Source: Thiorhodococcus fuscus (GTDB lineage Bacteria > Pseudomonadota > Gammaproteobacteria > Chromatiales > Chromatiaceae). From it: a stretch of DNA of 64,000 nucleotides. The notes under the pieces were generated by a model. The model was given only the letters and a program-made list of their open reading frames with translations. It did not search any database and had not been told where the DNA came from. This document shows positions 13,159-47,880 of the stretch, one piece after another. Within the stretch, counting starts at the first letter, position 1, and each line of letters begins with the position of its first letter. The position numbers were made by a program, and so were the translations under genes. The DNA is taken from NCBI RefSeq assembly GCF_042682685.1, contig NZ_JBHUHX010000009.1, positions 55,805 to 119,804 of the forward strand, written 5' to 3'.

Positions 13159-13201
13159 GCGCATACCGGAGCGCCTCCCCATCCGTCCAGCGGTTGAGGA
13201 C

Positions 13202-13240
13202 CTACCCCTTCACCGTCAAGACCTGCTTCCTTATGTGCAT
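13202..13240 (-). other. rtcB: Detached 3'-terminal fragment of rtcB (..MHIRKQVLTVKG*), split from the gene body by the inserted element
   Basis: The minus-strand translation ends RKQVLTVKG-stop. This is the canonical RtcB C-terminus that is missing from the rtcB body at 29.8 kb. Confidence 0.55.
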
Positions 13241-13281
13241 AATGGACCCCACTTCATCCAGCAATCCAAGTGGTGTCCTAA

Positions 13282-14832: not shown

Positions 14833-14939
14833 GAAACCCTCAAAACGATCCTAGGCAAGACTGGTAGGCAGGCATCGCTGGTAGGCAGGCATCGTGCGAG
14901 GCATGCTCGCCCCAGTGAGGCTTAGGCGGCGTCTGAGAT

Positions 14940-15300
14940 GGCAGACAATTACTGCCACCCAGTAGAGGGAGGGAGCCGCCCGCTTCCCCTAGGTGATCCA
15001 GTCTCCAGAACACCCCGACCGACATCTACGCGAGAACCTCTGTAAGCCCTTGTTATGAAAGGCTCTCGCAAAAACCGGGTGATTAACACTCCCTAATAGA
15101 CCAGAGAAGCCGTCCGCTTCACCCAGGCGAGCCGCCCCCAGAACGCTCCAACCGACGCCCGCCTAGCCACGCTTGCAAGATTCTGTTCTAAAAATACTTT
15201 TCTTGAAACGGGTGATTAGGGCGGCCCTGTAGAGTAGAGAGCCGTCCTCTTCACTCAGGCGATCCAGCCTTCCAGCCATCCACCACGATGCCTCGTCCCT
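14940..15300. repeat. Three tandem degenerate ~110-120 bp direct repeats
   Basis: The unit ..cgggtgatta..tagag(g/t)agagagccg(c/t)ccgcttcac(c/t)caggcga(t/g)cc..cagaac..ccgac recurs three times between the integrase and the next gene. Confidence 0.5.
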
Positions 15301-15346
15301 GACGGACAACCATCACAGCCAACAACCTCAAGGAGGAGCCGACCCC

Positions 15347-15583
15347 ATGTCCACCCGCCGCCATGTGCAGGTCTCTCGGCACATCGAGCTGAGGACCGAG
15401 CTGGCATTCCTGCGTCTCCGCTTCTGCAAGCCCGTCTCGAAACTGGAGCTGTCCAGGATGACGGACGTTGAGCCTCAGACCATCCGCCGGATCGTGCGAA
15501 CGATGGAAGCCATCGAACAGGCTGGACAAGAACTGCCCGAGACCTGGAAGGACGCGAAAGCGTTGGCCAAGGTGCTCGGCTGA
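15347..15583 (+). CDS. Small HTH DNA-binding protein (possible excisionase/regulator)
   Basis: 78 aa. SKLELSRMTDVEPQTIRRIV looks like a helix-turn-helix. First gene after the recombinase. Confidence 0.4.
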   Translation: MSTRRHVQVSRHIELRTELAFLRLRFCKPVSKLELSRMTDVEPQTIRRIVRTMEAIEQAGQELPETWKDAKALAKVLG

Positions 15584-16276
15584 GAACGACGACACATCAC
15601 CCCGATAGGTCAGCCCAGGACGCTCTTGGTAGAGATTGAGAGTACCCGAGGCTGACTTGCCATTCAGCTGCTAATTCCCAATGCAGAAATTTGTGCATTG
15701 GAGACTGCCGGCAAGCGGGGCGGCAAACCCCGTAAGGATTACACCCTCAGCCGCAACCAGCAATCCAACAGGTTTTTCGCAGCTCAGAGAAAAACCCCTA
15801 GAGCGCACAGGCAAGGATGGTCGACTGGCTCAAGCTGGAGTCAGCCAAGGAATACCTGGCAGCCATGCGTCGTGCGCTCAAATGTGAGAAATCCTCACTT
15901 TTGACAACCACTCGGGGCAACGCTGGCCAGGGTCTCTTTTTGCTGGCTCGGCTAATGTCTATCGCCGATGTCGGTCCTTGGTTCCGATCACTCGGGACGC
16001 TTGTGCTACAGGCTCTTGAAGCTATCACCCTCTCAGCGGTGCCGTCCTTTCCCGGTCTAGCGACTCCTCGCACCTGCACTGCAGGAATGATCCATCCGGC
16101 AACACGCCAACTCTGATCATTCGATCAACAGCTCACACCAGGGCTACTCAGTCACACCAATCCATTCAGGTCAGCATCTACAGGCTTGCCAGCTAGCTTC
16201 CTTTTGTTCAGGGGAGTTGGTGGGCTAGCTGGATGGTGCTTGCCTGTGGGTGCTCACCTGAAAAGGAAACTGAACA

Positions 16277-17176
16277 ATGTCTATCACTGACAACATCAAC
16301 GAATACGAAGTCAAGAAGAACCGTAAGCGCCGCCGTGGTCCCAGCGATGGGAGAAGCCTCAAGGGAACCCACGACACAGCCACCGAGAAGCAGTACATGA
16401 TCGCAGGGTTCAGCGAGGAGTCGGCTAAGCGGATGATCAAACACCGTCACCGCTTCCCCTTCGAGCTGGACGGCACACAGCCAACGTATGACGCACGGAC
16501 GGTGTGGAGCTGGATCGGGAAGCCGCAAGGCAAATTTGCCAACTGGGTGAAGCGGGATCTCATGCCGACAACCAGTCACCTGATGTTTCAGTCACAGATT
16601 AGTGACCGAATCCTGACCCCCACAGGCAAACGAGGTGGGCAGCAGATTGACTACCTTCTGAGCCGCGATGTCGTGATGGATCTAGGCCAGCAAGCTAGAA
16701 CGCCTGAAGGGCAGGAGATCCGAGCCTACTTCCGTGACATGGAGAAGGCGGTCTACATCATGGGCTCGTTCCATCAATACCGAGTCTCTGACCTAGTGGA
16801 GCTGGACAAGACCCTGAAGCATTGGACACGCAAGACCTTCGGTTCTGCCGGTGCTAGCTGGGATGAGACGATCTTCAGTCTCGTTGCCCGTGCTGTCTCC
16901 GGCTATTCCGCTGGAGTGTGGAAGACTACATTCAATCGTCCAATCCGTGATGTCCTGAACATGAAAGACCTTGAGCGGTATGGGCGGTGCTTGGAGATGA
17001 TGATCACGCTATTGGATGCAGGGATCACCAACACCGACACGCTGTACGTCAAGGCTTCAGGCCGCTTCGGTGGAGATGTCGAGATTGGAGACTACATCAC
17101 TACAGTCGAGCAGACTGAACGCTTCCATCAAGCAACAGCCAAGAAGAAGGTCAAGGCACTGAAGGAGGTGGCGTGA
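16277..17176 (+). CDS. Phage antirepressor-like protein (ORF6N/ORF6C- or AntA-like)
   Basis: 299 aa. The central GQEIRAYFRDMEK resembles the KilA-C/ORF6C motif. Basic N-terminus. Confidence 0.4.
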   Translation: MSITDNINEYEVKKNRKRRRGPSDGRSLKGTHDTATEKQYMIAGFSEESAKRMIKHRHRFPFELDGTQPTYDARTVWSWIGKPQGKFANWVKRDLMPTTSHLMFQSQISDRILTPTGKRGGQQIDYLLSRDVVMDLGQQARTPEGQEIRAYFRDMEKAVYIMGSFHQYRVSDLVELDKTLKHWTRKTFGSAGASWDETIFSLVARAVSGYSAGVWKTTFNRPIRDVLNMKDLERYGRCLEMMITLLDAGITNTDTLYVKASGRFGGDVEIGDYITTVEQTERFHQATAKKKVKALKEVA

Positions 17177-17201
17177 CCATGACCCCCTGATAGAGGGGAC
17201 C

Positions 17202-17651
17202 ATGACGAGGGAGCGCTCTACAGACCATGAGCCCCCGGATAGGGAGACCATGGAGGCTGCCCTGGCTCCCGTCAGCCATGACCCCCCAGTCGAGGGGACC
17301 ATGGAACAACCGATCTCCGTCCCATCCGTCGAGGCACTGAGGCTCAATGCCCGTGGAACCAAGCGGTCCCTGGTCGACGCCTTTACCTGCCTGTTGAACC
17401 AGGGCATCTCCTTTCCCGAACACCTGGAGCCGTGGCACTGGGTCGAGGCTCTGGCTCCCAGGCTGAAGACCATGGCCAAGGAGCGCGGACTTCCATCCGC
17501 CCTGGAGCTGGCAAGCTTCTCGACACGCCATCGCAGCGCCTTTGCCGTCGACGAGATCGCCAGGGATTACCTGATCGACCTGAAGTCCTGGGCCAGACAC
17601 CCCAAGCGACACCATCCCCACCAACCACTGCAGGCCGTCCCTGCGTCCTGA
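17202..17651 (+). CDS. Hypothetical protein
   Basis: 149 aa ORF in the same orientation as the element's operon. No recognisable motif. Confidence 0.3.
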   Translation: MTRERSTDHEPPDRETMEAALAPVSHDPPVEGTMEQPISVPSVEALRLNARGTKRSLVDAFTCLLNQGISFPEHLEPWHWVEALAPRLKTMAKERGLPSALELASFSTRHRSAFAVDEIARDYLIDLKSWARHPKRHHPHQPLQAVPAS

Positions 17652-17665
17652 AGAGACAGAAACCC

Positions 17666-17860
17666 ATGAACGATCCAACCCATTCACCCGTCAACGGGAC
17701 CGACACACCACTCGGCTTGCCCGAGAGCTGCCCGTGGGCGGACCAGATCCTCCTCATGCTCGGTCGAATCGAAGGCAAGCTCGACGCCTTTCAGCGCCAC
17801 ATGGCCGTCATGGACCGGAAGCTGGAGAGCGTCTCGACTCAGCGCCAGCAGAAGCACTGA
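17666..17860 (+). CDS. Hypothetical small protein
   Basis: 64 aa. ATG at 17666. Confidence 0.25.
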   Translation: MNDPTHSPVNGTDTPLGLPESCPWADQILLMLGRIEGKLDAFQRHMAVMDRKLESVSTQRQQKH

Positions 17861-18001
17861 GAATGCCTCAGAGCCTCGCTGTACGTCGATCTCAGGGTCT
17901 CTTGTCCTTTCGGTATGACTCACATCACCGAGAGCGGCGGGAGGCTCAGAGAGCCGCACAGAGGGACTTAGGCAGAGACCCAGCAGAACAGGATAAACAC
18001 A

Positions 18002-18262
18002 GTGATCGAATCGACACCATACAAAGCATGTGCCACTGAGACCGGCGAGATGTCATTAGGCGGCATCCGAGTTGTCGTACCAGTGGCTGACCGATTAACG
18101 GACCCAGAGTACATCGTATTTCTTGAGACCCTCACCGTCGTGAGTGACGGACGGAAGATGGTGCGTCAAGTCCGTGAGACTGAGTACGGCGCACAGAATA
18201 TATTCATCGACGCAATGAACACGCTCGTACTGACATACCCAGAAGACGTGGTGACAGTATGA
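18002..18262 (+). CDS. Hypothetical protein
   Basis: 86 aa. Its stop overlaps the next gene's start (ATGA coupling). Confidence 0.3.
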   Translation: MIESTPYKACATETGEMSLGGIRVVVPVADRLTDPEYIVFLETLTVVSDGRKMVRQVRETEYGAQNIFIDAMNTLVLTYPEDVVTV

Positions 18263-18666
18263 GCAGGCAAGTCCACAGGATCGAACATCAAACCATCAGA
18301 GAGCTGGTAAGCGACGCTACAGAGTATAAGCGCCTGCTCAAGGTGTACCGTGCCTTCCGTGCGAAGAAACCAGAAATGCTGGAGACATGGCCCGCTCTAG
18401 TGGATTCGGTCGCCATGACTGTTCAGAGCGAAAAGCTGACAACGGAAGCAGTGGAGAAGTACATACACCACCTATGGCAAGGTGGACGTGCGCCTATCCT
18501 TCCTCACCTGGCCAAGGTATACGGGCTGAAGCGCGGCCAAGCCACACGCCTTGACAGCCTCAGATTCCATGTGGATCTGATGAAGCTGGAAAAGTGGACT
18601 GTCGACTACGAGAAGCTGCTCGAATACGACAGAGCCCTAGAGTACGTCCTGCCCGAATATGAGTAA
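18259..18666 (+). CDS. Hypothetical protein
   Basis: 135 aa. Translationally coupled to the preceding ORF. Confidence 0.35.
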   Translation: MSRQVHRIEHQTIRELVSDATEYKRLLKVYRAFRAKKPEMLETWPALVDSVAMTVQSEKLTTEAVEKYIHHLWQGGRAPILPHLAKVYGLKRGQATRLDSLRFHVDLMKLEKWTVDYEKLLEYDRALEYVLPEYE

Positions 18667-18827
18667 CACTGCCTGACCCCACAGGCCGCACTGCGCGGAT
18701 CCCCTCCGCGACCTCTGAATACTGTGCGTAATCAGCACAGAAACCCAATCGACACAACCCTTTCTCGTTGAGTCCTTCCGCATTGCCACAGGCACTGGCT
18801 TTCTCTTGAGCCGGTTGTGGGTGCTAT

Positions 18828-20846
18828 GTGGATGGGACTCTGCGGGAGGATTCAACAAGAATGAATCAAGAGACAATGACCCTCTACAAGCAACAACCTC
18901 ACGTCCTCCCTGAAGTCTTCGCCGCCACCATGCGCGAGCACTGGGAGACCTCCCTCGGCAACGTCCCAAGCCCAGCCCTGCAAGCCCTGTGGCGAACCAT
19001 GGCCAAGGCATTCAATGCGTCCATCAATGACGAGGAGCATCGCTGGACTGTGCTCCAACCGCCCACGGGCACCGGCAAGACTCAAGGTGCCTGCCTATTC
19101 TCGGCCATGACAGCCAAGAAGAACGAAGGTCTCTTCATGGACGAGCGTGTCGGAATCCTGATCGTGACCCGGCTCATCAGTCAGGCCAACGAGATCGTGG
19201 AAACCGTCAACCGCATGGCCGGCTTCGAGTGTGCCGCAGCCAAGCATTCCGAGTCCGACCTCACGGCGGAAGAGGCTCAAGCCTTCGATGTTCTGGTGGT
19301 CACTCATGCCGCCTATACCAACGCCCTGGAAGGGCTCTGCAAGGATGACAGGAGCCGCTGGGATGCCCTGGTCCGCTGGGAGCATGGCTACCGGAAGCTG
19401 ACCATCGTGGATGAGGCCATCGCCAACATCGTGGAGGAGTACAACGTCAAGGCGGACGATGTCCGACTGACCCTGGCCTTCATCACCCCGGACATCCGCC
19501 ACCGCTACCCGAATGAGGTCGCTGCCGTGGAGCTGGTCAGGGATCTGCTGGAGCGGATCGCCGAGATGCACAAGGATGCCGAGGGCGACGAGGACGACAC
19601 CACCTCCAGGTTCACCGAGTCCAAGGTGCTCTGGACACCCGAGCGCAAGGCTCAACTCCTCGGCTCTGATGCCTCCATCTCCCTCGACAACCTCCGTGCG
19701 GCCATGAAGGAGGTCCGCTATGACCTGATCGGCAGCAGACGGGAGTCCAAGGACGACCGCAAGCGTCAGGCTGAACGGTTCGACAAGATCCTCCGCAGCA
19801 TCGAGGCGATCATGAACAGGTTCATGTGGTACGCGAAGAAGGGCTTAGAGTACAGCTTCAACGGATCCGAGCTACTGATCCCGGATGACCTCCCGTCCCC
19901 CGTGGTCCTGGATGCGACGGCTCGACAGAACTTCCTCTGGACCCTCCTGGAGGACCGAGCGGTCATCCTTCCCGTGCCACCCAAGACTCGGAACTACCGC
20001 AACGTCACGCTCCATGTGGCTCGGGCGAGAGGGACCGGGAAGACGGCGATGAAGGAGAAGGGCAAGGATCGGATTCCCCGACTCATCCATCAGCTCCAGC
20101 AAGATCTGGATCCAGGCAGGAAGGTCTTCGTCGCTCTGCACAAGGACATCGAGCACCATGCCGTCAAGTACGACCCTGGCTTCTCTGAGTGGTCTGTCGG
20201 TCACTGGGGAGCCATCGACGGTCGGAACGATTGGATGACCTATGACACTGCCGTCATCTTCGGCCTTCCATACCGGGACACTATCTGGGCGACCAACGCC
20301 TTCTTCGCCACCCAAGGTGTCCAGAGCAACGAGTGGCTGAAGAACCCCGAGTGGAAGGGCTACAAGGATGTCCGGGAGGAGATGCAGATCAGACAGGTCT
20401 GTGTGTCCGTGGTCCAGGCCGTCAACCGAGTCCGCTGCCGGAAGGTGACCGATGCGGATGGAAGCTGCGATCAGTCGGATGTCTTCATCATCCTGCCGAC
20501 CGGGAAGATGGGAGAGCAGATGCTGAAGGCTCTGGTGGAGGAGATGCCAGGGATCCAGGTCAAGGGTTGGGACTTCGAGTTGGATGGAGCCAAGCCAAGG
20601 CAACGGATCAAGAAGGGCTCAAGTCATGAGGCGCTCCTGACTCTGATGCAGAACGCGCTGCCTGGAGATTACTCGGTGAGCCACTTGAACACCGAGCTGG
20701 GCCTAGCGCCCAAGGGGCTTGAGAAGATCAAGGCTGCCCTTCGCGATCCAAGCCACCCTCTGACCCGAGCCCTGCTGGAGGTCGGGGTCAAGGTTCAACA
20801 CTCTGGTGCCAAGCGAGGAGCAAGGACGACGCTCATCAAGACGTGA
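18828..20846 (+). CDS. SF2 (DEAD/DEAH-like) helicase-family protein, phage/island-encoded
   Basis: 672 aa (alternative start at 18861, MNQETM). Walker A LQPPTGTGKTQ, DEAH-like box LTIVDEA, a late QAVNRVRCRK resembling helicase motif VI (QxxGRxxR). Confidence 0.55.
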   Translation: MDGTLREDSTRMNQETMTLYKQQPHVLPEVFAATMREHWETSLGNVPSPALQALWRTMAKAFNASINDEEHRWTVLQPPTGTGKTQGACLFSAMTAKKNEGLFMDERVGILIVTRLISQANEIVETVNRMAGFECAAAKHSESDLTAEEAQAFDVLVVTHAAYTNALEGLCKDDRSRWDALVRWEHGYRKLTIVDEAIANIVEEYNVKADDVRLTLAFITPDIRHRYPNEVAAVELVRDLLERIAEMHKDAEGDEDDTTSRFTESKVLWTPERKAQLLGSDASISLDNLRAAMKEVRYDLIGSRRESKDDRKRQAERFDKILRSIEAIMNRFMWYAKKGLEYSFNGSELLIPDDLPSPVVLDATARQNFLWTLLEDRAVILPVPPKTRNYRNVTLHVARARGTGKTAMKEKGKDRIPRLIHQLQQDLDPGRKVFVALHKDIEHHAVKYDPGFSEWSVGHWGAIDGRNDWMTYDTAVIFGLPYRDTIWATNAFFATQGVQSNEWLKNPEWKGYKDVREEMQIRQVCVSVVQAVNRVRCRKVTDADGSCDQSDVFIILPTGKMGEQMLKALVEEMPGIQVKGWDFELDGAKPRQRIKKGSSHEALLTLMQNALPGDYSVSHLNTELGLAPKGLEKIKAALRDPSHPLTRALLEVGVKVQHSGAKRGARTTLIKT

Positions 20847-21556
20847 TCAGTTATCCCCCTGGAGACCCCTAAAGGAATACTTTAGAGATGTTGGGGGGGT
20901 ATTCGCATGGCCAAGGACGGCCAGGATCCACCTGATCCAAGCTTGACAAAGAGACTCCACTCCTTCGTCGCTACGTGCGTCGACCACCATCAGCCATCAC
21001 CCTGGACCACCTTCCTCCGGGCTTCGCCCTGATCGACATAACAGAGGATGGAAGGGAAGATCTTCATGGTCCCCTTCCACCTCAGCCGGCCTCAAGCTGC
21101 CTCAAGCCTCTCGGCTCGGAGTCCGATCAAGCTGCCTTCCTCGCTGATCGAGCCGGATCCCTTGGCTGTCCAGCTTTCTATGTCGATCAGTCGAGAGAAT
21201 CCGACTGAGCCAAGGAAGACCGTGGTCCCCTGATCTAGGGGGGCATGGCGCTGCTCTGGGCTTGTTGTCATCCGCTGCCGAGAGGCTTGAGCCCTCGCTG
21301 CGCCTAATCCTGCTGTCCTGGTGGTGCGAAGGTCGGCGGATCTTCTGGCTGTCTCTCTTCTTGTATCTGTGATTTTTCCAGAGGGACAGCTCTAGTCCCT
21401 CCATACCGCCTCCCTCTGCCTGCCTCTCTACCACCGAAGGTCTTCGTCTCCTTCGCTCTTGCACCCCACCCGCTGCCTGTCGGCCTTCGACAGTGACGCC
21501 CTTCGCCTCCCAGACAGCCGATCTGGTCTCCCTCATCCTCACTGGAGACAGACACC

Positions 21557-21751
21557 ATGAACGACATGACCTCTGCCCTTGGAGACGCCCTCGCCACTTG
21601 GGCGAGCGGTCGGCACATCAGCCGTGAGATCCGCAACAGCCTGCTTGAGTCCGGCTACAGCGCCGACGACATCGCAATGATGGAACTCCATCACTTCAAG
21701 CCCGCACACCTCCACCTTTCGCGTACCTCCCAGACTGGAGAGAACCAATGA
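21557..21751 (+). CDS. Hypothetical small protein
   Basis: 64 aa. 4-bp overlap with the downstream Bro-N gene. Confidence 0.3.
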   Translation: MNDMTSALGDALATWASGRHISREIRNSLLESGYSADDIAMMELHHFKPAHLHLSRTSQTGENQ

Positions 21752-22707
21752 CCGCACTGTCCACCTTCACCTTCCCCGTCACTGCAGCCCAGGTCCGTAC
21801 CGTCACTGACGAGAATGGCGATCCATGGTTCGTCGCCAAGGATGTGGCCGATGCCCTTGGGTATGAGAACACGATGGAAGCGGTGCGCTACCACTGCAAA
21901 CGCGCTAAGGCGTTGAATACATTGAAGCAGAGCAAAATGCTCTCCTTGCATCCGCACACGAAGCTCATCCCCGAGGCCGACATCTACCGTCTGGTGATGC
22001 GCTCCAAGCTCCCGTCCGCCGTTGAGTTCGAGGAATGGGTTGTCGAGGAAGTCCTGCCCTCCATCCGCAAGACTGGCAGCTACTCCATGCAGCCTGCTCT
22101 CCCTGACTTCACCGATCCGGCAGCCGCCGCTGAAGCATGGGCGAAGGAGTACCGGGACAAGATGGTCATGATCGACTTCGCCAAGAAGCAGGCAGCCCAG
22201 CTCACCGAGCAGGCCCCGCTGGTGGACTTCGCCGAGGCTGTCGTCGCCGACAGTGAGGACTGCTACATCCGCGATGCAGCCAAGACGGTCGATGTCGCCC
22301 CCTTCCGGCTCTACGAGATCCTCCGTCAGTACAAGTGGATCCCTGAGTCCGATGTCTACCGGATGGTGATGCGTTCCACCCTCTCGGCTGCCTCTCGATC
22401 ACTGAGCTGGTGGGCTCTCGTCACGACAAGGTCAAGCAAAGCATCGAGCGCCTCGCAAACCGTGGTGTTATCACTCAACCTCCAATGGAGGATGCGTCCT
22501 ACAAAGACGGACCCGGCAGCACCATCGTCACCTAGCTCTTCATCTTCTCCGGTGAGCAAGGCCGGCTGGACTCCTTCTCGGTGGTCGCCCAGCGGTTGCC
22601 CACACCGAGCGTCTCACCTGCATGCTGGATATAGACGAAGTTCAAAGCCACCGGTTTGGTGGGTTTGGACCTCGCGGGTCGATGCCGCCGAAGCACAAAA
22701 CCTATAA
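21748..22707 (+). CDS. Bro-N domain phage antirepressor, apparently frameshifted into a Rha-like segment
   Basis: N-terminal Bro-N signature: GDPWFVAKDVADALGY..EADIYRLVMRSKLP.A.EFE.WV...VLPSIRKTGSY. After ~aa 230 the frame becomes low-complexity, while another frame encodes SELVGSRHDKVKQSIERLANRGVI (Rha-family motif). Confidence 0.55.
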   Translation: MTALSTFTFPVTAAQVRTVTDENGDPWFVAKDVADALGYENTMEAVRYHCKRAKALNTLKQSKMLSLHPHTKLIPEADIYRLVMRSKLPSAVEFEEWVVEEVLPSIRKTGSYSMQPALPDFTDPAAAAEAWAKEYRDKMVMIDFAKKQAAQLTEQAPLVDFAEAVVADSEDCYIRDAAKTVDVAPFRLYEILRQYKWIPESDVYRMVMRSTLSAASRSLSWWALVTTRSSKASSASQTVVLSLNLQWRMRPTKTDPAAPSSPSSSSSPVSKAGWTPSRWSPSGCPHRASHLHAGYRRSSKPPVWWVWTSRVDAAEAQNL

Positions 22708-23640
22708 ATCGTCGGTTTTCGGACCTTGTGGCGTAAATTTAATAAACTAATCATAGGCTTACAATGAATCCCTCGGTGAAAGCGAGGCAGCAAATCACCT
22801 CAATGAGGACGAAGCACAAAACCTGCAAATCGCCGGTTCTGGAAATTGTGATGTGAATTTGATAAGTGAATCAGGGCTTTACGGGGCGATCCTTGGTAGC
22901 CACAAGGCGGAAGCCAACCGGGTTCAAGCGCTGTTCAGCAAGGATTTTCACGGCAACTCTCGCGAATCACGAGGGTCGCGGTTGCGTTCGGATACCAAGC
23001 TGAATCCCCGAGGCTGACATCTACCGTCTGGTGATGAAGTCCCGCTTCCCGTCCGCTACGCGGTTTTAGGAGTGGGGTGTCGATCCGTTCGACCCCCTTG
23101 GCGAGCGGGAAAGGGGCCGCATCCGTTGTGACCCCTGGCGCGTGGATAGGGTGGACGGCAAATTTCCTCCCCCTCTGAAAAGACCAAGCGGATAACCTCG
23201 ATTATGGTTCGCCTGACTGGAAGGGGGTTAATCCGATTAACACCCCTGGGGGAAATCAAGAGGTTACGGTGCTCACCGAGCAGGGTCTCTACTTCTTCGT
23301 CGCCCGCTCCGACAAGCCCTGCGCTCGGCCCTTCCAGAAGTGGAAGGGTACGAAACCGATTCGTACCCCTGGTGGAGCCCAGAAGGTGACCAAATCGTTG
23401 GTTCATGGACCCAAGGGTGGAAGGGGGCGAGCCTCGATTCCTGGCGTTGTATGTTGCACTGGTGCCGAGCCACTCCGATGCCCACAACATGACCACCAGG
23501 CTGGACACGGACGAAGTACAAAACCTGCAAATCCCAGGTTTGCTCACTCGCGGCGTGAATTTGATAAGCGAATCATGGCTTTACGAAGCGATCCTTGGTA
23601 GCCACAAGGCGGAAGCCAAGCGGTTCAAGCGCTGGGTCAA
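22690..23640. repeat. Array of degenerate direct repeats made of Bro-N antirepressor gene fragments
   Basis: Three copies of a 70-125 bp unit beginning gaag(c/t)acaaaacct(g/a)(c/t)aaatc.. at about 22690, 22811 and 23512. Copies 2 and 3 are ~90% identical over ~125 bp. Additional Bro-N-like peptides occur at 22990-23050 (ADIYRLVMKSRFPSA) and 23204-23350 (LTEQGLYFFVARSDKPCARPFQKW). Confidence 0.55.
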
Positions 23641-23995
23641 GCGTGAAGTCCTGCCCACCATCCGCAAGACCGGCAGCTATTCGCTCCAGCCTCAACCCCA
23701 GATCCCACAGTCCTTGCCCGAGGCACTCCGTCTCGCCGCCACGCTGGCCGAAGAGAAAGAGCGCCTCGCCCAGGAGAACGCGCAGCTCACCCACATCACG
23801 TCCGTCCAGAACGACATGCTTGAAGCCACTGCCCCCAAGGCTGCCCTTCTCGATCAAGCGTTCGAGGATGACCGCTGGGTTAACGTGACCGACTTCGCCA
23901 GCCGGCTGGAAGGCGTCAACCGCAACAGCCTGACTTCAGTGATCCGGGTTATAGGAGGCGCGGTTGCAGTTAGCTATCAAGCCACTCGTTTGTAA
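23405..23995 (+). pseudogene. Bro-N C-terminal half fused to a KilA-C-like tail (antirepressor remnant)
   Basis: ESWLYEAILGSHKAEAKRFKRWVKREVLPTIRKTGSYSLQ is the distal half of a Bro-N domain without its N-terminal half. Preceded by repeat debris. Confidence 0.45.
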
Positions 23996-25037
23996 CTTCA
24001 CGGTACTTGCCGATGAAGTCCTCACGACCACAAAGCCGAGGTTCTGTCAGCAAATGGTAGGCTCTATTTATGGCCTGCCCGATCTCTTCCCGAGTCAACT
24101 CTGCACAGAACACCGAGAAGAAATCAGATAGATCGACAACAGCAAGATCGAAGCTCAGGTGCTCGATGAAATCTATTAGTTTGGACGCGGGATATAGATC
24201 GCTATCACCCCGGACATCGGAAGCGAATATTACGTATTTTGGCAGATTGCCCCGAACCGCTTTCTTTTGAAAATCACTAAGTCGGTTCTTCCAATCATCC
24301 CTTACCGTTACCTCGAATGCCGCTATTAGCAAGTCCTCTCTGTATTCCTCAATATCTCCAGTTGCCCCATCGAATTTGTCAGATGCATGCGGGTGATGTG
24401 TAATAACTCGATGCCCATATCGCTTTCGATGGACTTCAATGAAGGCGGCAACCAAGAACTGCTGGATGTGACCCTCTGAGGGTACTTTCATCAGCCTTTC
24501 GCAGAGACGAAGACTTCTCGCATACGACAAATAACCCCTTGGTAAAACTGGCAGTGCTTGCGGAATCACCTTGGATTGTTCAAGTCTCCATACAATGTGA
24601 TTGACAAGCGCTTCCCTTTCTGCTGGCTGCAGGCATTCAAGGTTGCTCACGAATGATGCAAAGCGTATATCAGCCGAGAGATCAAACTGGCGCACCGCTC
24701 CCTTCCAGCCTAAATTTTCACCAAATGCCGTTATGCTGTTGTGAAGTGTGACATGCCGTTGAGTCAGCTCCCCTGCGAGTCTCTTATCACCATACTTACC
24801 TCGCGCCCCTACTGGGACGGTCTTAAAATCCCACTCTTCATCAATCAACGAATATGCTGCCAGGAAAGCACAAGCAAGTCTCACGCTTCCGCGCTGCGAT
24901 TCTATATGGCTATCAAATATCGCTTTGACATTTCTAGGCGCAGGCTCTCCAAGAACCTCTCCTTCTGATAGGCGATCAAGCCTATCAAGAATAATATCTA
25001 CAGCCTTCTCTACACTTTCATTTCGTCTTCGTTTCAT
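23970..25037 (-). CDS. Putative Type II restriction endonuclease (partner of the adjacent C5-MTase)
   Basis: 355 aa, markedly low-GC ORF. 4-bp overlap with the methyltransferase gene. No motif assignable by eye. Confidence 0.5.
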   Translation of the reverse strand: MKRRRNESVEKAVDIILDRLDRLSEGEVLGEPAPRNVKAIFDSHIESQRGSVRLACAFLAAYSLIDEEWDFKTVPVGARGKYGDKRLAGELTQRHVTLHNSITAFGENLGWKGAVRQFDLSADIRFASFVSNLECLQPAEREALVNHIVWRLEQSKVIPQALPVLPRGYLSYARSLRLCERLMKVPSEGHIQQFLVAAFIEVHRKRYGHRVITHHPHASDKFDGATGDIEEYREDLLIAAFEVTVRDDWKNRLSDFQKKAVRGNLPKYVIFASDVRGDSDLYPASKLIDFIEHLSFDLAVVDLSDFFSVFCAELTREEIGQAINRAYHLLTEPRLCGREDFIGKYREVTNEWLDS

Positions 25038-26083
25038 AGCGCCAATTCCATTTGATTGAAATCCTCATTTGCAGGCACAAGACCCGAAGGAGATTGAACT
25101 CCATTGGCCTGAGAATACAAAGCCGCGCCTATGGCAAATGCCAGATCAGGTGGAACTGCGTCTCCCACTTGCTTGTACTGAGACGAGCGTTTGCCAGAGA
25201 AAGCCATCTCGCTAGGAAAGGTCTGGATTATGGCGCACTCTTCCACGCTAAGGCGACGAGCACCAGGCACTATACCTTGCCACGGCTCTCCACCAGCGCG
25301 GAGATGAGAGTGGTACTTCGGGGCAATATTTTCCGTATCTATCCAGTGAGTCTTGTATCCGCCCGATGATGCCAGGATTGTGTGGCAGGGTCCGTTGGGA
25401 TCGATAGGGCGTCCACCTCCATTATAGACATGCCCAGCGTATGGACTCGGGCGTAAGTCTGGATACTTAGCGAAACGCACAGGGCAGTTCGGTGCTTCAC
25501 CGATAGGATCCGGGCCAAGCCTACTAGCCGCACTTACGTGCGGTAGCGATGTGTTTTCGCCATGGGTTGGCGTAGGTAGAAGTAAGCGATGTGAGCGGGA
25601 GCCGAGTATAAATAGTCGCCTTCTCTTCTGCGGCACGCCATAATCCGCAGAGTTAATTACAGACCAGTTAATGTGATATCCACATGCAGCCAGCCTTGAA
25701 AGGACTGACTCAAAATACGGGCGAGCCTTCTTGAGTGTAAGACCAGGAACATTTTCCATGAGGAAATACGCTGGCCGAACTTCGTTGAGACATCGGATGA
25801 ACTCTGGAATCATATCCCTTTCGTCCGCATGCCCTTTGCGCAACCCACCGATTGAAAAAGGTTGGCACGGAGGTCCGCCAACGACAATGTCAACTCGGCC
25901 TCGAAATGGCGAGAAGTCAATCTTGCGAACATCTTCGTTGAAGTGGTTTGAGCTGCCATGGTGCAAGGCGTATGTATCCATAGCATCTCGGTTGATCTCG
26001 ACATTTGCCACAATATCGAAACCAGCCCTCTGGATGCCTAAAGAAAGACCGCCTGGCCCTGAGAATAGGTCGATGCCTTTCAC
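25034..26083 (-). CDS. DNA (cytosine-5)-methyltransferase
   Basis: 349 aa. Motif I DLFSGPGG, motif IV GGPPCQPFS, motif VI ENV, motif VIII QKRRRLF. Confidence 0.9.
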   Translation of the reverse strand: MKGIDLFSGPGGLSLGIQRAGFDIVANVEINRDAMDTYALHHGSSNHFNEDVRKIDFSPFRGRVDIVVGGPPCQPFSIGGLRKGHADERDMIPEFIRCLNEVRPAYFLMENVPGLTLKKARPYFESVLSRLAACGYHINWSVINSADYGVPQKRRRLFILGSRSHRLLLPTPTHGENTSLPHVSAASRLGPDPIGEAPNCPVRFAKYPDLRPSPYAGHVYNGGGRPIDPNGPCHTILASSGGYKTHWIDTENIAPKYHSHLRAGGEPWQGIVPGARRLSVEECAIIQTFPSEMAFSGKRSSQYKQVGDAVPPDLAFAIGAALYSQANGVQSPSGLVPANEDFNQMELAL

Positions 26084-26496
26084 TGATATTGGTATCGCTT
26101 CTGGTCGGATAAGCCCCTGCTCTTGCTATCGGATGTGGGAGATCTTTCCGACAACGAGGCAGACAGGGCTAGTAGGGAACTTGCAGCAAAGAGGCTAGGC
26201 AAACCTAGCTTGCTTGACGTAGAGTAAAAGCCGTCCGCCGAGGTGCTGACAACACCCCGACGACAAAGCAAGGCCGCCACTAACGGCTTGCACCGGCTCG
26301 GACATGATACAGCCCCAGGGGTTGGTCTGTCCGCTCAAGGCCCAACTACGCTGATTCCTAGCCAAGTTGCGCCTGGAGTTCCCGTTCCTTCCTCCTGGGA
26401 GAGCCTCTGCCCCTGACGCTGCTGCCTCACCGACAGCGTCGGACTGCCTGTGTGAGCGGTCGATTTCTCAAATCCAACTCTTGGAGAGATCGACCC

Positions 26497-26793
26497 ATGA
26501 AATCCCATGAACAGCTCCTCGCCCCTGGCTCCACCGAGAAGACCGTCGCCACTGCCGACCTGAACATCCGCAGCACGATCAGTCTGGATGTTTACGCCGG
26601 AACCAGATCCTGGATGTGGAAGGTCTACCTCAACAAGGAGGAGCTGACGAGCCAGAGCGGCTACTCCACCCACGCCTTGGCCAGCCAGGCCGGATTGGCG
26701 GAATGGGACCGGATCGTCTCGGCGGTCACCGGCTCGAACATCAAGGCCATCGAAGCCAATGTCGCTGCCGCTGAGAAGGAGCCGTCCGCATGA
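26497..26793 (+). CDS. Hypothetical protein upstream of the replication ATPase
   Basis: 98 aa. ATG at 26497. Its stop overlaps the downstream start (ATGA). Confidence 0.35.
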   Translation: MKSHEQLLAPGSTEKTVATADLNIRSTISLDVYAGTRSWMWKVYLNKEELTSQSGYSTHALASQAGLAEWDRIVSAVTGSNIKAIEANVAAAEKEPSA

Positions 26794-28406
26794 ACCCAAG
26801 CCCCCTCCTTGCTGAGGGGGTGTCCAACACCTCCAGGCACACTTCCGTATCCAACGCTGTTGGAGCCTCAGCATCTAGCGCTGTTGAAGCCTCTGCGCCC
26901 AGCACAGCCGAAGCCCCCGACACTCCGCTGCCGGACTTCACCCCAGTCGCCACCATCCGCCGACCCGATGGTCAAGAGACCCAAGTCGTCCGTGACCGCT
27001 GGGGCAGCCATCTGCTGCACTCTCCCGACAACCCCGGATGGGTCCGGGTCCATCGAGACGGAGCGGGCAACTGGATCGAGCGCGAGACCGGGATCGTCCA
27101 TGCCACCGATGGCAGCGTGATCCACCCCAAAGACATCTTCGGCGCATCATCCGAGGGATTCATCGACGTGAACACCAAGGCAGCCTCGACCATCAAGCCC
27201 GACCCCGTGCGTTGGCTTTGGCCCGGATGGCTCGCGGCCGGGAAGGTCCACCTCCTGGCTGGAGCACCAGGCACAGGGAAGACCACCGTCAGCATGGCTC
27301 TGGCGGCGACGGTCTCGCTTGGAGGCAGATGGCCCGATGGAACCGAAGCCCTCCAAGGTGATGTCCTGATCTGGTCCGGGGAGGACGACATCAAGGACAC
27401 CCTGGTCCCGAGGCTCATGGCTGTGGGGGCTGATCTCAATCGCGTCCACTTCATCACGACCACCAACACCGAGGATGGCCTGAGAGCCTTCGATCCAGCC
27501 GTCGACATCGACCTCCTGGCCGACAAGATGGCCTGGATGGATCCTTGCCCTTCCTTGCTGATCGTCGATCCCATCGTGGCAGCGGTCTCTGGAGACAGTC
27601 ACCGCAACGCCGAGGTCCGGCGAGCCTTGCAGCCCTTGGTTGACCTGGCCGCTTCCCGTCACTGCGCTGTTCTGGGGATCTCCCACTTCAGCAAGGGCAG
27701 CTCGGGACGAGATCCGATTGACCGGGTGACCGGATCGCTGGCCTTCGGTGCCCTGGCGCGGGTGGTCATGGCAACCGCTCGGCTGCCGGACGACCACCCC
27801 AGTGGAGTGAGGCGGATCCTGGCCCGAGCCAAGAGCAACATCGGCGAGGATGGTCAGGGGTTCGGATACGACCTGGAGCTGGAGGAACCGGTCGAGGGAA
27901 TCGAGGCGACCCGAGTCCTCTGGGGCGAGATGCTCGAAGGCAGCGCCAGGGAACTCCTGAGCATGGCCGAGCCGGTCCCTGATGGCGAGGGTGAGAGCAA
28001 CGCCGATGTCGAGTCCTTCGTTCGCGGGCTCCTGGCCGATGGTCCAGTCTCCGCCAAGCAGATGAAGGCCGATGCCGATGGAGCCGGCTACTCCTGGGAT
28101 CGGGTGAAGCGAGCCGCCAGCCGGATCGGAGTGGAGCGGAGGAAGGAGGACTTCAGCAAGGGCTGGGTATGGTCGCTCTCCACGGACCATGACGGTCGAT
28201 CAAGAACGGTCGCTCTGGAGGAGCTGATCCGGGATGCCCTGGCACAGGGAGAACGCACGGCCCAGGAGATGAAGGTCATGATCGAGGAAGCCGGCTATTC
28301 CTGGGATCAAGGCAAGCGAACCGCCGCCAAGCTGGGCATCGAGCGCCAAAAGTCCGGTTACCAGGGACCGTGGACCTGGACGCTGGGAGAGGCTGCCGCC
28401 GCCTAG
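26790..28406 (+). CDS. RepA-like AAA_25/RecA-fold replication ATPase of integrative elements, with two tandem ~57-aa C-terminal repeats
   Basis: 538 aa. WLAAGKVHLLAGAPGTGKTTVSMALAATVSLGGRWPDG (Walker A in AAA_25 context), LLIVDPI (Walker B). The C-terminus has a duplicated module ..GAGYSWDRVKRAASRIGVERRK.. / ..EAGYSWDQGKRTAAKLGIERQK.. Confidence 0.75.
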   Translation: MNPSPLLAEGVSNTSRHTSVSNAVGASASSAVEASAPSTAEAPDTPLPDFTPVATIRRPDGQETQVVRDRWGSHLLHSPDNPGWVRVHRDGAGNWIERETGIVHATDGSVIHPKDIFGASSEGFIDVNTKAASTIKPDPVRWLWPGWLAAGKVHLLAGAPGTGKTTVSMALAATVSLGGRWPDGTEALQGDVLIWSGEDDIKDTLVPRLMAVGADLNRVHFITTTNTEDGLRAFDPAVDIDLLADKMAWMDPCPSLLIVDPIVAAVSGDSHRNAEVRRALQPLVDLAASRHCAVLGISHFSKGSSGRDPIDRVTGSLAFGALARVVMATARLPDDHPSGVRRILARAKSNIGEDGQGFGYDLELEEPVEGIEATRVLWGEMLEGSARELLSMAEPVPDGEGESNADVESFVRGLLADGPVSAKQMKADADGAGYSWDRVKRAASRIGVERRKEDFSKGWVWSLSTDHDGRSRTVALEELIRDALAQGERTAQEMKVMIEEAGYSWDQGKRTAAKLGIERQKSGYQGPWTWTLGEAAAA

Positions 28407-28419
28407 CGGTTAGCCGCCA

Positions 28420-28610
28420 AAGGGAGCGGAAGGGGGCGAAGAAGTGGACTCAAGTCTACGTGCTCCCTTCCGCGCTCTTTGCTCCCTTCTGCACTCTTTG
28501 GCTGCATTCTTCCGCATTCTTTGGCGCGACCACGGCTCAAAGGGAGCAGAAGAGTGCAAGGGAGCAGAAGGGAGCACTGGAATTTGAGTGCATCCTTCGC
28601 CTTCTTCGGT
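28420..28610. repeat. Iteron-like direct repeats inside a long imperfect palindrome (candidate origin/regulatory region downstream of repA)
   Basis: Direct repeats gcactctttgg / gcattctttgg / gcattcttcc, flanked by inverted arms gtgctcccttc..tgctcccttctgcact and agtgcaagggagcagaagggagcac. Confidence 0.35.
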
Positions 28611-29040
28611 GCTCCCTTCGCGTCGATTCATGCGCAGCCGAGGGACTGAGGCGCGTCCGCCGACTGTCCGCGCCGGTGAGAGTGAAGACCTTGGATGTTT
28701 TGCCATAAAAATCTGAAGTGGCACATCTAGAGCGCGGCTTCTGAATTCCCCCCCGTCCCGCCCCTGCATTCCGCCATTCGCCTTCTTTCGTCCCGCCTCT
28801 GGGGTATGCCCCAGTCTCCACCGCAAGCCAGCCGCCAAGCAGACAACCAAGCCTCTCCGGTCCACCGCTCCGGCCATCCACCGAGCCCTCCAAGCCTTGC
28901 CCTACCGGTGAAGCCCCGAGGCTCTGGCACCTTAGCGCTTCCGTCTTCGATGGAGCCTGATACATCGGCACTCTGTCGCCGCTCTTTCCGTTGCCGCAGC
29001 ACCAGCTCATCCGACTGCCAAGGGACGTGATGTGTCCCTT

Positions 29041-29190
29041 CGATGTCGTGTCCAGTGGGTACACCTTCTTGGACACTTCGGCCATGCCCATGGATCAGCG
29101 GGTTATCGTGTCCAACAAAGTTGATATTGCATTATCTTGACACTTGCAAAGATGAGCTTTAGGCTTTTTTGGACACTTCGAGACACGCCC
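29041..29190. promoter_or_regulatory. Candidate res-like site / resolvase operator
   Basis: Several TGTCCA/TGGACA half-site dyads (cgtgtccagtggg, ttggacacttcgg, cgtgtccaacaaa, ttgacacttgcaa, ttggacacttcga) and an AT-rich core directly upstream of the resolvase start. Confidence 0.4.
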
Positions 29191-29211
29191 ACATGAGAGG
29201 AGCGCACAGCC

Positions 29212-29769
29212 ATGTCAGGACAGCAGGTCGGATATATCCGGGTCTCTTCGGTCGATCAGAACAGCGACAGACAGTTGGTCGATGTCGAGCTGGACAAGAC
29301 CTTCACCGAGAAGGCATCGGGCAAGAACACCGCAGGTCGGCCAATCCTGGCTCAGTGCCTGGCATATGTGCGCGAAGGCGACACCATCCACGTCCACAGC
29401 ATCGACAGGCTGGCCCGGAACCTCGCCGAGCTGCAGTCCCTGGTGGACGATCTGGTGAGCTGTGGCGTGTCGGTCCAGTTCCACAAGGAGAACCTGACCT
29501 TCCAGGCTGGAGCGGGTGATCCGATGCAGCGGCTGATGCTGCAAATGATGGGAGCCTTCGCCGAGTTCGAGCGGTCGATGATCCGAGAGCGCCAGCGGGA
29601 AGGGATCGCGGAAGCGAAGCGCCAGGGCAAGCAGATCGGGAGAGCCAGGAAGCTGGACGATGATCAGATTGCAGCGGTCAGGGAACGCATCGCCAAGGGT
29701 GAGAACAAGAAGGCGATTGCTGCCGATCTGGGGATCTCAAGGCAGACGCTGTACAGCGCCTTGGGCTGA
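29212..29769 (+). CDS. Small serine recombinase (resolvase/invertase family) with C-terminal HTH
   Basis: 185 aa. GYIRVSSVDQNSDRQ catalytic serine region, DRLARN, C-terminal HTH ISRQTLYSAL. Confidence 0.9.
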   Translation: MSGQQVGYIRVSSVDQNSDRQLVDVELDKTFTEKASGKNTAGRPILAQCLAYVREGDTIHVHSIDRLARNLAELQSLVDDLVSCGVSVQFHKENLTFQAGAGDPMQRLMLQMMGAFAEFERSMIRERQREGIAEAKRQGKQIGRARKLDDDQIAAVRERIAKGENKKAIAADLGISRQTLYSALG

Positions 29770-30979
29770 ACACCCGAGAGACACTACGACCTAGATCAAT
29801 TATTTTGGGGTCTATTGTTAATGATGTGTTCAGCGTATGCACCACCTCGACCAGATCGCTCTGGTTCGCCATGACGGCGTCGATGTCCTTATAGGCGGCG
29901 GGGATCTCGTCGATGACCCCCTTGTCCTTGCGGCACTCGACGCCCTGGGTCTGGACCTCCAGATCCTTGCGGGTGAAGCGCCGGGTCGCCTCGCCACGAC
30001 TCATACGCCGACCCGCTCCGTGCGAACAGGAACAGAATGACATGGGGTTCCCCAGTCCGCGCACGATGTAGGACTTGGCGCCCATGCTCCCCGGGATGAT
30101 GCCCAGATCGCCCTCGCGCGCCCGGATGGCACCCTTGCGGGTCAGATAGACCTCCTTGCCGAAATGCTGCTCGCGCGTCACGTAGTTGTGGTGACAGTTG
30201 ATCGCCTCCGAGGTCGCCTCGAACGGCGGCAGCTGTCCGCGCAGCGCCTCGATGATGAGCCGCATCATCTGACGACGGTTCTCCATCGCATAGTCCTGGG
30301 CCCAGCCGACCGCCTCGACATAGTCGTCGAAGTGCTGGCTGCCCTCGGGCAGATAGGCCAGGTTGTGATCGGGAAGCTGGATCTTCCAGCGCTCCATCTC
30401 GCGCTTAGCCAGCTCGATGAAATGCATCCCGATCCGATTGCCGATCCCGCGCGATCCCGAGTGGAGCATGATCCAGACCTGCTGGGACTCGTCGAGACAG
30501 AGTTCGATGAAATGGTTTCCGCCACCCAGCGAGCCGAGCTGACTCTTCCAGCGCGCATTGACCTTGGGATGCTTGGCCAGGATCGGCTCGAGACCGGGCG
30601 CCACCCGGGCGAGCCCCTCCTCGCACCAGTGCTCCTGACCGTGTCCGTCCATCCCGACCGGCACCCTGGCCTCGATCGCCGAACGCACCCGGGCCAGCGA
30701 GTCCGGCAGCTGGTCCGCGCGCAGCGAGAGCCGCAGGGCGTTCATGCCGCAACCGATGTCGACGCCCACGGCTGCCGGGATGATGGCCCCGACTGTCGGG
30801 ATCACCGAGCCGATGGTCGCGCCCATCCCCCAGTGCACGTCCGGCATCGCCGCCACGTGCGAATGGATGAAGGGCAGATGGGAGACGTTTTCGAGCTGCT
30901 TCATGGCGTTCTCGGCCACGTCGTCCGTATAGATCTTGACCGGAACCCGGCCCTTGCTGATGACTCGCTTGATAGGCAT
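29678..30979 (-). CDS. rtcB: RNA-splicing ligase RtcB, native C-terminus replaced by the element junction
   Basis: Hallmark motifs GGGNHFIE, HSGSRG, CHHNY, SHGAGR. The native frame runs 30979 down to ~29834 (..DLVEVVHTL) and then reads 50 unrelated codons antisense to the resolvase gene instead of the canonical ..KQVLTVKG end. Confidence 0.85.
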   Translation of the reverse strand: MPIKRVISKGRVPVKIYTDDVAENAMKQLENVSHLPFIHSHVAAMPDVHWGMGATIGSVIPTVGAIIPAAVGVDIGCGMNALRLSLRADQLPDSLARVRSAIEARVPVGMDGHGQEHWCEEGLARVAPGLEPILAKHPKVNARWKSQLGSLGGGNHFIELCLDESQQVWIMLHSGSRGIGNRIGMHFIELAKREMERWKIQLPDHNLAYLPEGSQHFDDYVEAVGWAQDYAMENRRQMMRLIIEALRGQLPPFEATSEAINCHHNYVTREQHFGKEVYLTRKGAIRAREGDLGIIPGSMGAKSYIVRGLGNPMSFCSCSHGAGRRMSRGEATRRFTRKDLEVQTQGVECRKDKGVIDEIPAAYKDIDAVMANQSDLVEVVHTLNTSLTIDPKIIDLGRSVSRVFSPRRCTASALRSPDRQQSPSCSHPWRCVP

Positions 30980-31004
30980 GGTCTTCTCCGTCGATGAAGC
31001 TGGG

Positions 31005-31095
31005 TTCACCGAATCGAACCGCAAAAGCGCAAAGGGCGCGAAGCCGGAATATCAAAGCTCTTTGCGTTCTTCGCGCCTTTGCGGTTCAAACTGTC
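31005..31095. repeat. MITE/REP-like hairpin element, copy 1 (in the rtcB upstream region)
   Basis: Inverted arms gaaccgcaaaagcgcaaagggcgcgaag / cttcgcgcctttgcggttc. Related to the copy at 33661-33795. Confidence 0.5.
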
Positions 31096-31391
31096 TTATC
31101 CGTATTCCCGCGACCTCGCACTCGGTCCGATTCGACCGGATCGCGTCCGTGGAAGGCGTCGATGCCGTCCTCGATGGCCTGGCGATGGCCGGCGCGGATG
31201 CTGGAGGCGGATCGCACGTGCGGACCGCCCTTGCGCAACAGTGGCGATCGGGCCACCGGGTTTCTCCGTTTGTTCATCTCGATTCGTCCTTTCATGAAGG
31301 GCCGCCGTCCATGGCGGCATTCCGTTTCATCCTGACCAGCGCGACCTATCCCGCATTCGCTGGAAGCTGACCGCTGGAGGCTGGCCGCTCA

Positions 31392-33660: not shown

Positions 33661-33795
33661 GAAGCAATCGAACCGCAAAGGCGCAAAGATCACGAAGAAA
33701 AACAATCGGCTCTGCATATGTCGCGTTTCTCTCGATCCGAATGCATCGAACATATCGCATAGAGGTTCTTTGCGTCCTTTGCGTCTTTGCGGTTC
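33661..33795. repeat. MITE/REP-like hairpin element, copy 2 (upstream of the XRE regulator gene)
   Basis: gaaccgcaaaggcgcaaagatcacgaag ... ttctttgcgtcctttgcgtctttgcggttcc. Shares terminal sequences with the copy at 31005-31095. Confidence 0.5.
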
Positions 33796-47849: not shown

Positions 47850-47880
47850 GTGCAAAGCTTTGGATGCTTGGAGAGAAGTA

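Follow-up and report, generated by a model that had tools for sequence, protein, structure and literature searches.

Why should the gene for an RNA ligase, whose carboxy-terminal motif is kept by nearly all of its orthologues, read on for 50 foreign codons into the complementary strand of a resolvase gene? The question is raised by rtcB in a 64,000-nucleotide stretch of the Thiorhodococcus fuscus genome (RefSeq assembly GCF_042682685.1, contig NZ_JBHUHX010000009.1, positions 55,805 to 119,804; hereafter the window, numbered from its first letter). An earlier note, made from the sequence alone, had proposed that a mobile element replaced the C-terminus of RtcB, and this is borne out by the missing end of the gene, found 16.6 kb away, and by an empty site in a relative. 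We conclude that a 16.6-kb element very probably integrated site-specifically, by conservative recombination, into the 3' end of rtcB, with the large serine recombinase that it encodes as the catalyst.

The ligase is encoded by a minus-strand open reading frame (ORF; 29678..31024; Pfam PF01139, E = 1.2e-130, profile positions 1-424 of 426), in which the start that agrees with the orthologues is the MPIKRV at 30979, giving a fused protein of 433 aa. The earlier note had held that the frame continues for 50 codons after HTL, antisense to the 3' end of the resolvase gene, and so it does: beyond ...DLVEVVHTL (H381-T382-L383) it reads NTSLTIDPKIIDLGRSVSRVFSPRRCTASALRSPDRQQSPSCSHPWRCVP (beginning NTSLTIDPKIIDLGRSV) up to a stop at 29680-29678, and the final 92 nt of the ORF (29678-29769) lie antisense to the small resolvase gene (29212..29769). 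An overlooked in-frame stop shortly after HTL, which the note itself had named as a possible objection, was looked for and does not occur across the 50 extra codons. The missing end of rtcB (the last eight codons and the stop) sits 16.6 kb off, on the same strand of the same contig, at 13228-13202, and with it restored the protein has its native length of 391 aa, ending at G391. The pieces are the following.

29831-30979, minus strand: chromosomal part of rtcB, codons 1-383, ending ...VVHTL (Pfam RtcB; 96% identical to the intact orthologue P0001; DNA collinear with the empty-site locus L001, described below, up to CTGAA).
29678-29830, minus strand: codon 384 (AAC, its first two bases being the crossover AA) and 49 element-encoded codons (TSLTIDPK...WRCVP) with the stop (from translation and an AlphaFold2 model).
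13202-13228, minus strand: detached 3' end of rtcB, AAG CAG GTC TTG ACG GTG AAG GGG TAG, or KQVLTVKG and stop (protein identical to orthologue C-termini).
29212-29769, plus strand: small resolvase/invertase-type serine recombinase of 185 aa, convergent with rtcB (Pfam Resolvase, E = 2e-36, and HTH_7).

The orthologue set comprised the best 120 matches to the fused protein in a search of 5.8 billion proteins. All except one (119/120) end in HxL(K/R)Q..(V/I)KG, the closest in HTLKQVLTVKG, and since they keep this native end the tail is not ancestral; a second objection named in advance, that uninterrupted orthologues might carry the same extension, falls with it. The fused 433-aa protein is itself missing from the 5.8-billion-protein collection, in which the recombinase of the same genome is present under its NCBI name, and this pairing suggests that the public annotation treats rtcB as a pseudogene.

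Separately, the RtcB of another organism (P0055, 71% identical) diverges two codons earlier, with ...VVHT followed by STLR and a stop. Its contig (L002; Logan ERR10899993; 1960-1996 of 1996 bp) breaks off 9 bp beyond the new stop, with about 24 bp following the divergence, and judging from these few bases it could hold a second, different element in the same rtcB region, or be an assembly break.

The uninterrupted locus is seen in the metagenomic contig L001, which encodes an intact RtcB (96% identical) with a normal C-terminus, and in which the gene order is that of the window flanks (Band_7, a small ORF, rtcB, ldh, SPOR, argS, priA). The gap between rtcB and ldh measures 43 bp in L001 as opposed to 16.6 kb in the window, and the difference is accounted for by one block.

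13229-29828: integrated element of ~16.6 kb, absent from the syntenic locus L001 and lower in G+C (57.8%, versus 64% in both flanks).

Read in the orientation of rtcB, the empty site in L001 is ...GTGCATACGCTGAAGCAGGTCTTGACGG... (the site proper being CATACGCTGAAGCAGGTC), the rtcB-side junction ...GTGCATACGCTGAACACATCATTAACAATAGACCCC... and the far junction ...GGGGTCCATTATGCACATAAGGAAGCAGGTCTTGACGG..., with GAA as the sole sequence common to the empty site and both junctions. So short a shared stretch accords with serine recombinases, whose crossover is 2 bp, and not with a long direct repeat. The assembly behind the window is a draft (the recombinase is on a 130,944-bp contig), and the junction might for that reason be thought a chimera of assembly; yet the two junctions are each other's reciprocal to the last base, have the 3-bp core in common and belong to one contig, 16.6 kb from each other. 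The integrase gene at the boundary and the symmetric element arms complete a pattern that misassembly would not give, and we regard this explanation as next to impossible. The integration of the element, with its boundaries and its empty site, is what the two loci display, and the attachment sites can be laid out from them.

29803-29856, minus strand: hybrid attachment site on the rtcB side (B arm - AA - P' arm), from comparison with L001 and the other junction.
13201-13254, minus strand: hybrid attachment site on the far side (P arm - AA - B' arm), with the core GAA at 13227-13229, from junction comparison.

On the rtcB side the shared core GAA occupies 29829-29831, and the exact crossover dinucleotide is probably its AA (TT on the plus strand), at 29829-29830. 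The earlier note had placed the junction at gtgttcag and suspected a recombination site there, in keeping with a crossover that falls within those letters. The element half of the rtcB-side site (CACATCATTAACAATAGACCCC) mirrors the half found at the opposite element end, 16.6 kb away, and by joining the two element-side arms we rebuilt attP as AAGTGGGGTCCATTATGCACATAAGG-AA-CACATCATTAACAATAGACCCCAAAA (around the crossover, ...TGGGGTCCATTATGCACATAAGG-AA-CACATCATTAACAATAGACCCCA...). The chromosomal attB, ...GGTGCATACGCTG-AA-GCAGGTCTTGACGGTGAAGGGG..., spans rtcB codons 376-391, with the crossover at the first two bases of codon 384. The rebuilt attP is pseudo-palindromic: its 26-bp halves share TGGGGTC.ATT.T..A (13/26 positions), in register only with the non-palindromic AA as centre, so that 22 bp separate each GGGG block from the middle of the site. 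Serine integrases recognise pseudo-palindromic half-sites of ~25 bp around a central dinucleotide, and the reconstructed attP agrees with this architecture (PMC3783163).

A suitable enzyme is encoded directly inside the far boundary; the resolvase at the other end of the element is preceded by a repeat cluster of its own.

13282-14832, plus strand: large serine recombinase of 516 aa, presumed integrase (Pfam Resolvase, Recombinase and Zn_ribbon_recom; PHROG 95).
29029-29180: res-like site, six GTGTCCA / TGGACAC (or TTGACAC) motifs in both orientations directly upstream of the resolvase gene (repeat families D1 and D4; inverted pairs I2-I5).

The recombinase gene starts 53 bp inside the far junction and encodes, in order, PF00239 (E = 9.5e-16), PF07508 (E = 8.3e-15) and PF13408 (E = 4.1e-07), and its product matches PHROG 95 ('integrase', E = 2e-71). 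All 71 columns that are invariant among 31 homologues are kept, the R17-F18-S19 motif included, and R17, F18, S19, R95, S97 and R98 as well as the zinc-ribbon cysteines C318, C321, C343 and C352 are present (invariant or nearly so in these homologues); by its sequence the gene is intact, and S19, from its position in the YxRxS motif, would be the nucleophile. We take this 516-aa recombinase to be the probable agent of the integration. The small resolvase was also considered for this role and rejected: at 185 aa it is of the resolvase/HTH_7 kind, its own gene is preceded by res-like repeats, and both the boundary geometry and the symmetry of the arms fit the large recombinase. The layout of the motifs at 29029-29180 resembles a multi-subsite res site, or else autoregulatory operators.

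The proposed course of events would begin with recombination between the attP of the element and the chromosomal attB in rtcB, catalysed by the element's recombinase. The gene would be split in the process, codons 1-383 staying with the promoter and the last eight codons and stop being moved 16.6 kb away, and translation of the promoter-proximal part would then enter the P' arm and the antisense strand of the resolvase gene, which would supply the 50 foreign residues. Exact excision (attL x attR) would restore the rtcB frame and yield the junctions CATACGCTGAAGCAGGTC (attB) and CACATAAGGAACACATCATT (attP).

Two features of the arrangement concern the integrase gene. The ldh gene (12220-13158) runs in the direction of the integrase gene and its end lies 124 bp before the integrase start, so that read-through could express the integrase in the integrated state. 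The excised circle would place the resolvase gene, attP and the integrase gene on one strand within ~180 bp.

Several observations weigh against this account of the insertion, as does a bias in the structural modelling that is taken up below. In the 5.8-billion-protein search, the only protein above 49% identity to the recombinase was that of Thiorhodococcus fuscus itself (100%), the next relatives being at <=49%, and rtcB was found within 6 kb at none of 80 genomic loci of recombinase relatives 37-47% identical to it (tblastn with RtcB); the comparative data do not, for these reasons, corroborate a target preference. The viral, metagenome, phage and plasmid collections searched yielded neither an excised circle nor a free attP nor a further copy of the element, and attP is consequently a reconstruction only. 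The inward shift of about 5 bp of the outer (zinc-ribbon) motif in attB, expected from the Listeria integrase model, was not convincingly shown: by eye, GAGGTC/GAGGTG lies ~4 bp further in on the left attB arm, with no clear counterpart on the right. Finally, no recombination directionality factor was recognised among the scanned small ORFs without Pfam matches, such factors not being recognisable by homology.

The individual searches were uniform in outcome. Relatives of the integrase were absent from viral contigs, a megablast of the whole element returned no match in 50,697 phage records and none in the plasmid collection, and neither the reconstructed attP nor the P' arm had an exact match in viral or metagenome contigs; within the collections searched the element appears to be a singleton so far. 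The notion of a conserved clade of rtcB-targeting recombinases was dropped, given that 0/80 of the relatives' loci have rtcB within 6 kb. Literature searches on rtcB with serine recombinases, prophage attachment sites or genomic-island insertion brought up no report of the gene as an integration target.

The junction also carries an inverted repeat, to which the earlier note had given prominence.

29765-29773: left repeat arm (GCTGAACAC), overlapping the resolvase stop codon.
29826-29834: right repeat arm (GTGTTCAGC), consisting of GTG from the element, the TTC core and AGC from the chromosome.

It had been described as 8 bp long (ctgaacac at 29765-72, gtgttcag at 29826-33) with a 53-bp spacer. 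The repeat is real, but it measures 9 bp (GCTGAACAC 29765-73, GTGTTCAGC 29826-34), ctgaacac lies at 29766-29773 and the spacer is 52 bp. This spacer, called AT-rich in the note, holds in its junction-proximal part the P' half of the hybrid site. Two functions had been suggested, an end-recognition or recombination site of the element and a terminator hairpin that would keep the resolvase transcript out of rtcB. The repeat does bracket the last 52 bp of the element, and the RNA of 29845-29755 folds with the arms paired (-26 kcal/mol, z = -2.2; 5/200 shuffles fold as well). Repeats of this kind are nevertheless common: perfect 8-bp inverted repeats whose arms are 3-60 bp apart number 187 in the window (~93 in composition-matched shuffles), and 33% of 223-bp windows contain one. 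Element, core and chromosome each contribute three letters to the right arm, so that the full 9-bp match came into being only with the integration; a free attP would have only 6 bp of it (GAACAC/GTGTTC). The dyad symmetry that matters is the one between the two element ends, not within one of them, the recombination site proper being centred on AA/TT at 29829-29830, and for the small resolvase there is the separate cluster at 29029-29180. A terminator is contradicted by the 52-nt loop without a U-run and by the count of terminator-like sites on either strand in 29000-31200, which is zero. We conclude that the repeat is incidental and at chance level, and consider either function extremely improbable.

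What, then, has become of the ligase that now ends in this junction? The suggestion that it is altered proved correct, in that the native C-terminal motif has been swapped for NTSLTIDP and 42 further residues, and the fused RtcB does not end in the conserved ...L(K/R)Q..(V/I)KG. The alternative to a damaged enzyme is that the swap is functionally neutral, with the element supplying a surrogate last strand to an active ligase and no physiological consequence. In its favour, no invariant residue before position 384 is missing (D74, C77, H156, H173, H263, H264 and H320 are among those kept), and the element-derived NTSLTI keeps L-T-(V/I) in register with KQVLTV. The AlphaFold2 model of the fused protein preserves the RtcB fold (template modelling scores of 0.73-0.78 against the solved human and P. 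horikoshii RtcB chains, Foldseek) and places NTSLTI with high confidence in a terminal strand at 377-389 (mean predicted local distance difference test score, pLDDT, of 92 for 381-390), the strand of an intact orthologue being modelled at 377-390. This placement is biased, however, as every other row of the underlying alignment has the native strand. Against neutrality, Q385, K390 and G391, invariant in 58 orthologues, are lost and replaced by T, D and P, and the terminal VKG is retained even in the distant RtcB structure 2EPG from T. thermophilus. The native protein ends at G391, while the fusion adds ~41 disordered residues rich in Arg, Ser and Pro (393-433, pLDDT < 50), and the absence of the fused protein from the protein collection, with the pseudogene call that it suggests, points the same way. 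The core fold of RtcB may survive, minus three invariant C-terminal residues and plus a disordered tail of ~41 residues; on balance we lean towards a loss or strong reduction of RtcB activity, and hold a neutral swap to be tenable but the less probable outcome. The T. fuscus strain may lack normal RtcB activity, a point that matters only to studies of RNA repair and stress recovery in purple sulfur bacteria.

The rest of the element is made up of a replication module, a restriction-modification system and apparent remnants of regulatory genes.

26790-28406, plus strand: AAA_25 replication protein, primase/helicase-like (Pfam AAA_25, E = 1.4e-36; PHROG DNA polymerase/primase and primase/helicase families).
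28413-28625: iteron-like cluster of dense direct and inverted AAGGGAGCA / TGCTCCCTT repeats directly after the AAA_25 gene (repeat analysis).
23970-26083, minus strand: type II restriction-modification pair, a restriction endonuclease (23970-25037) and a C5-cytosine methyltransferase (25034-26083) (PADLOC REase_II, E = 6e-99, and MTase_II, E = 5e-94; Pfam DNA_methylase).

The iteron-like cluster is a plausible, putative iteron-type origin for the excised element. An Ant-like ORF and a 672-aa helicase-like protein of unknown function are encoded as well, and at least four fragments of Bro-N/Ant type lie in different frames at 21748-23995 (the N-terminal half at 21748, further pieces at ~22330, 22853, 23269 and 23405). 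The ORF at 21748 runs into a low-complexity out-of-frame tail, and the region looks like the product of decay or of recombination among anti-repressor genes. None of the ten largest ORFs of the element was recognised as a virion structural or packaging gene (PHROG matches fall in the integrase, anti-repressor and primase/helicase categories only), and from its gene content the element seems to be a replication-competent island of the integrative kind, with genes for defence as its cargo, rather than a prophage.

Elements that split host genes by means of serine integrases include skin, with SpoIVCA, in sigK, and the A118-like phages in comK. Another is SPbeta, which splits spsM by way of SprA and whose precise excision rebuilds the gene (PMC5499854). 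The T. fuscus element is of this type in its edge-encoded large serine recombinase, its insertion within a gene, the minimal identity at the crossover and the pseudo-palindromic attP (PMC5499854, PMC3783163), and likewise its precise excision would rebuild the host gene. It departs from SPbeta, skin and A118 in its target, rtcB, and in removing only the last eight codons, so that the gene is tail-swapped rather than bisected; unlike the SPbeta and A118 prophages, it has no phage structural genes among the scanned ORFs.

In staphylococci, staphylococcal cassette chromosome (SCC) elements integrate at the 3' end of rlmH/orfX through the large serine recombinases CcrAB, and the reading frame and stop of rlmH are preserved. 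In both SCC and the T. fuscus element, a large serine recombinase inserts a non-phage cargo island, and the target is the final codons of a conserved housekeeping gene connected with RNA. The differences are that the stop of rtcB is lost and 50 residues are added, that a single recombinase takes the place of the CcrA/CcrB pair, and that the host belongs to an unrelated phylum, with restriction-modification, a replication module and a resolvase as cargo. A third resemblance, to islands like the phage-inducible chromosomal islands (PICI) and to integrative plasmid-like islands, lies in the small size of 16.6 kb, the integrase at one end, the AAA_25 primase/helicase-like protein followed by iteron-like repeats, the Ant/Bro regulators and the defence cargo. 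Set against it are the serine integrase in place of the usual tyrosine integrase and, among the ORFs scanned, the lack of any recognised gene for packaging or capsid redirection; a helper phage is not known either, and the element's own resolvase and res-like module are more plasmid-like.

The precedent of SPbeta raises the question of whether the insertion acts as a reversible switch, the element excising precisely under some condition and restoring rtcB, as in SPbeta/spsM and in 'active lysogeny'. The recombinase gene looks intact, recombination of attL with attR would restore the exact rtcB frame, and SprA is a serine integrase that does just this (PMC5499854). The absence of a recognised directionality factor speaks against a switch, as do the apparent decay of the Bro-N/Ant region into fragments and the finding of the element only once in all collections searched, with no sign of conservation or domestication; we deem the switch unlikely. 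Less likely still, and argued by analogy with comK/spsM control, is that the choice of rtcB was no accident, that the element would disable or reversibly gate RNA repair and that its excision would turn repair on. Were that so, the strain might cope differently with RNA-cleaving toxins, anticodon nucleases or phage attack, and only if excision were such a regulated RNA-repair switch would the locus be of higher interest.

Taken as a site-specific integration, the event is an ordinary one by a known mechanism, with a target, rtcB, that is apparently unreported, and it does not challenge current understanding. For annotation, the odd 433-aa RtcB is explained as a gene interrupted by a mobile element, whose sites and boundaries are now exact to the base. 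For work on recombinases, a previously unpaired large serine integrase gains a defined attB/attP pair in a highly conserved gene, and such integrase-att pairs are what integrase-discovery efforts look for.

Two further observations concern the surroundings. A palindrome like the repetitive extragenic palindromes (REP) of bacteria (...CGCAAAAGCGCAAAGGGCGCGAAG...CTTCGCGCCTTTGCG...) lies just upstream of rtcB (31010-31090), with related copies near a tRNA-Ile/helix-turn-helix region (33674-33791); a host palindrome of this type within the element was considered as a sign of long residence and set aside, the motif occurring only outside the element. Further along the window, a 280-aa TIR_2 ORF (47860-48702, E = 2.9e-13) lies in a patch of low G+C (48-53% at 47-49 kb) and may represent a small defence-related insertion.

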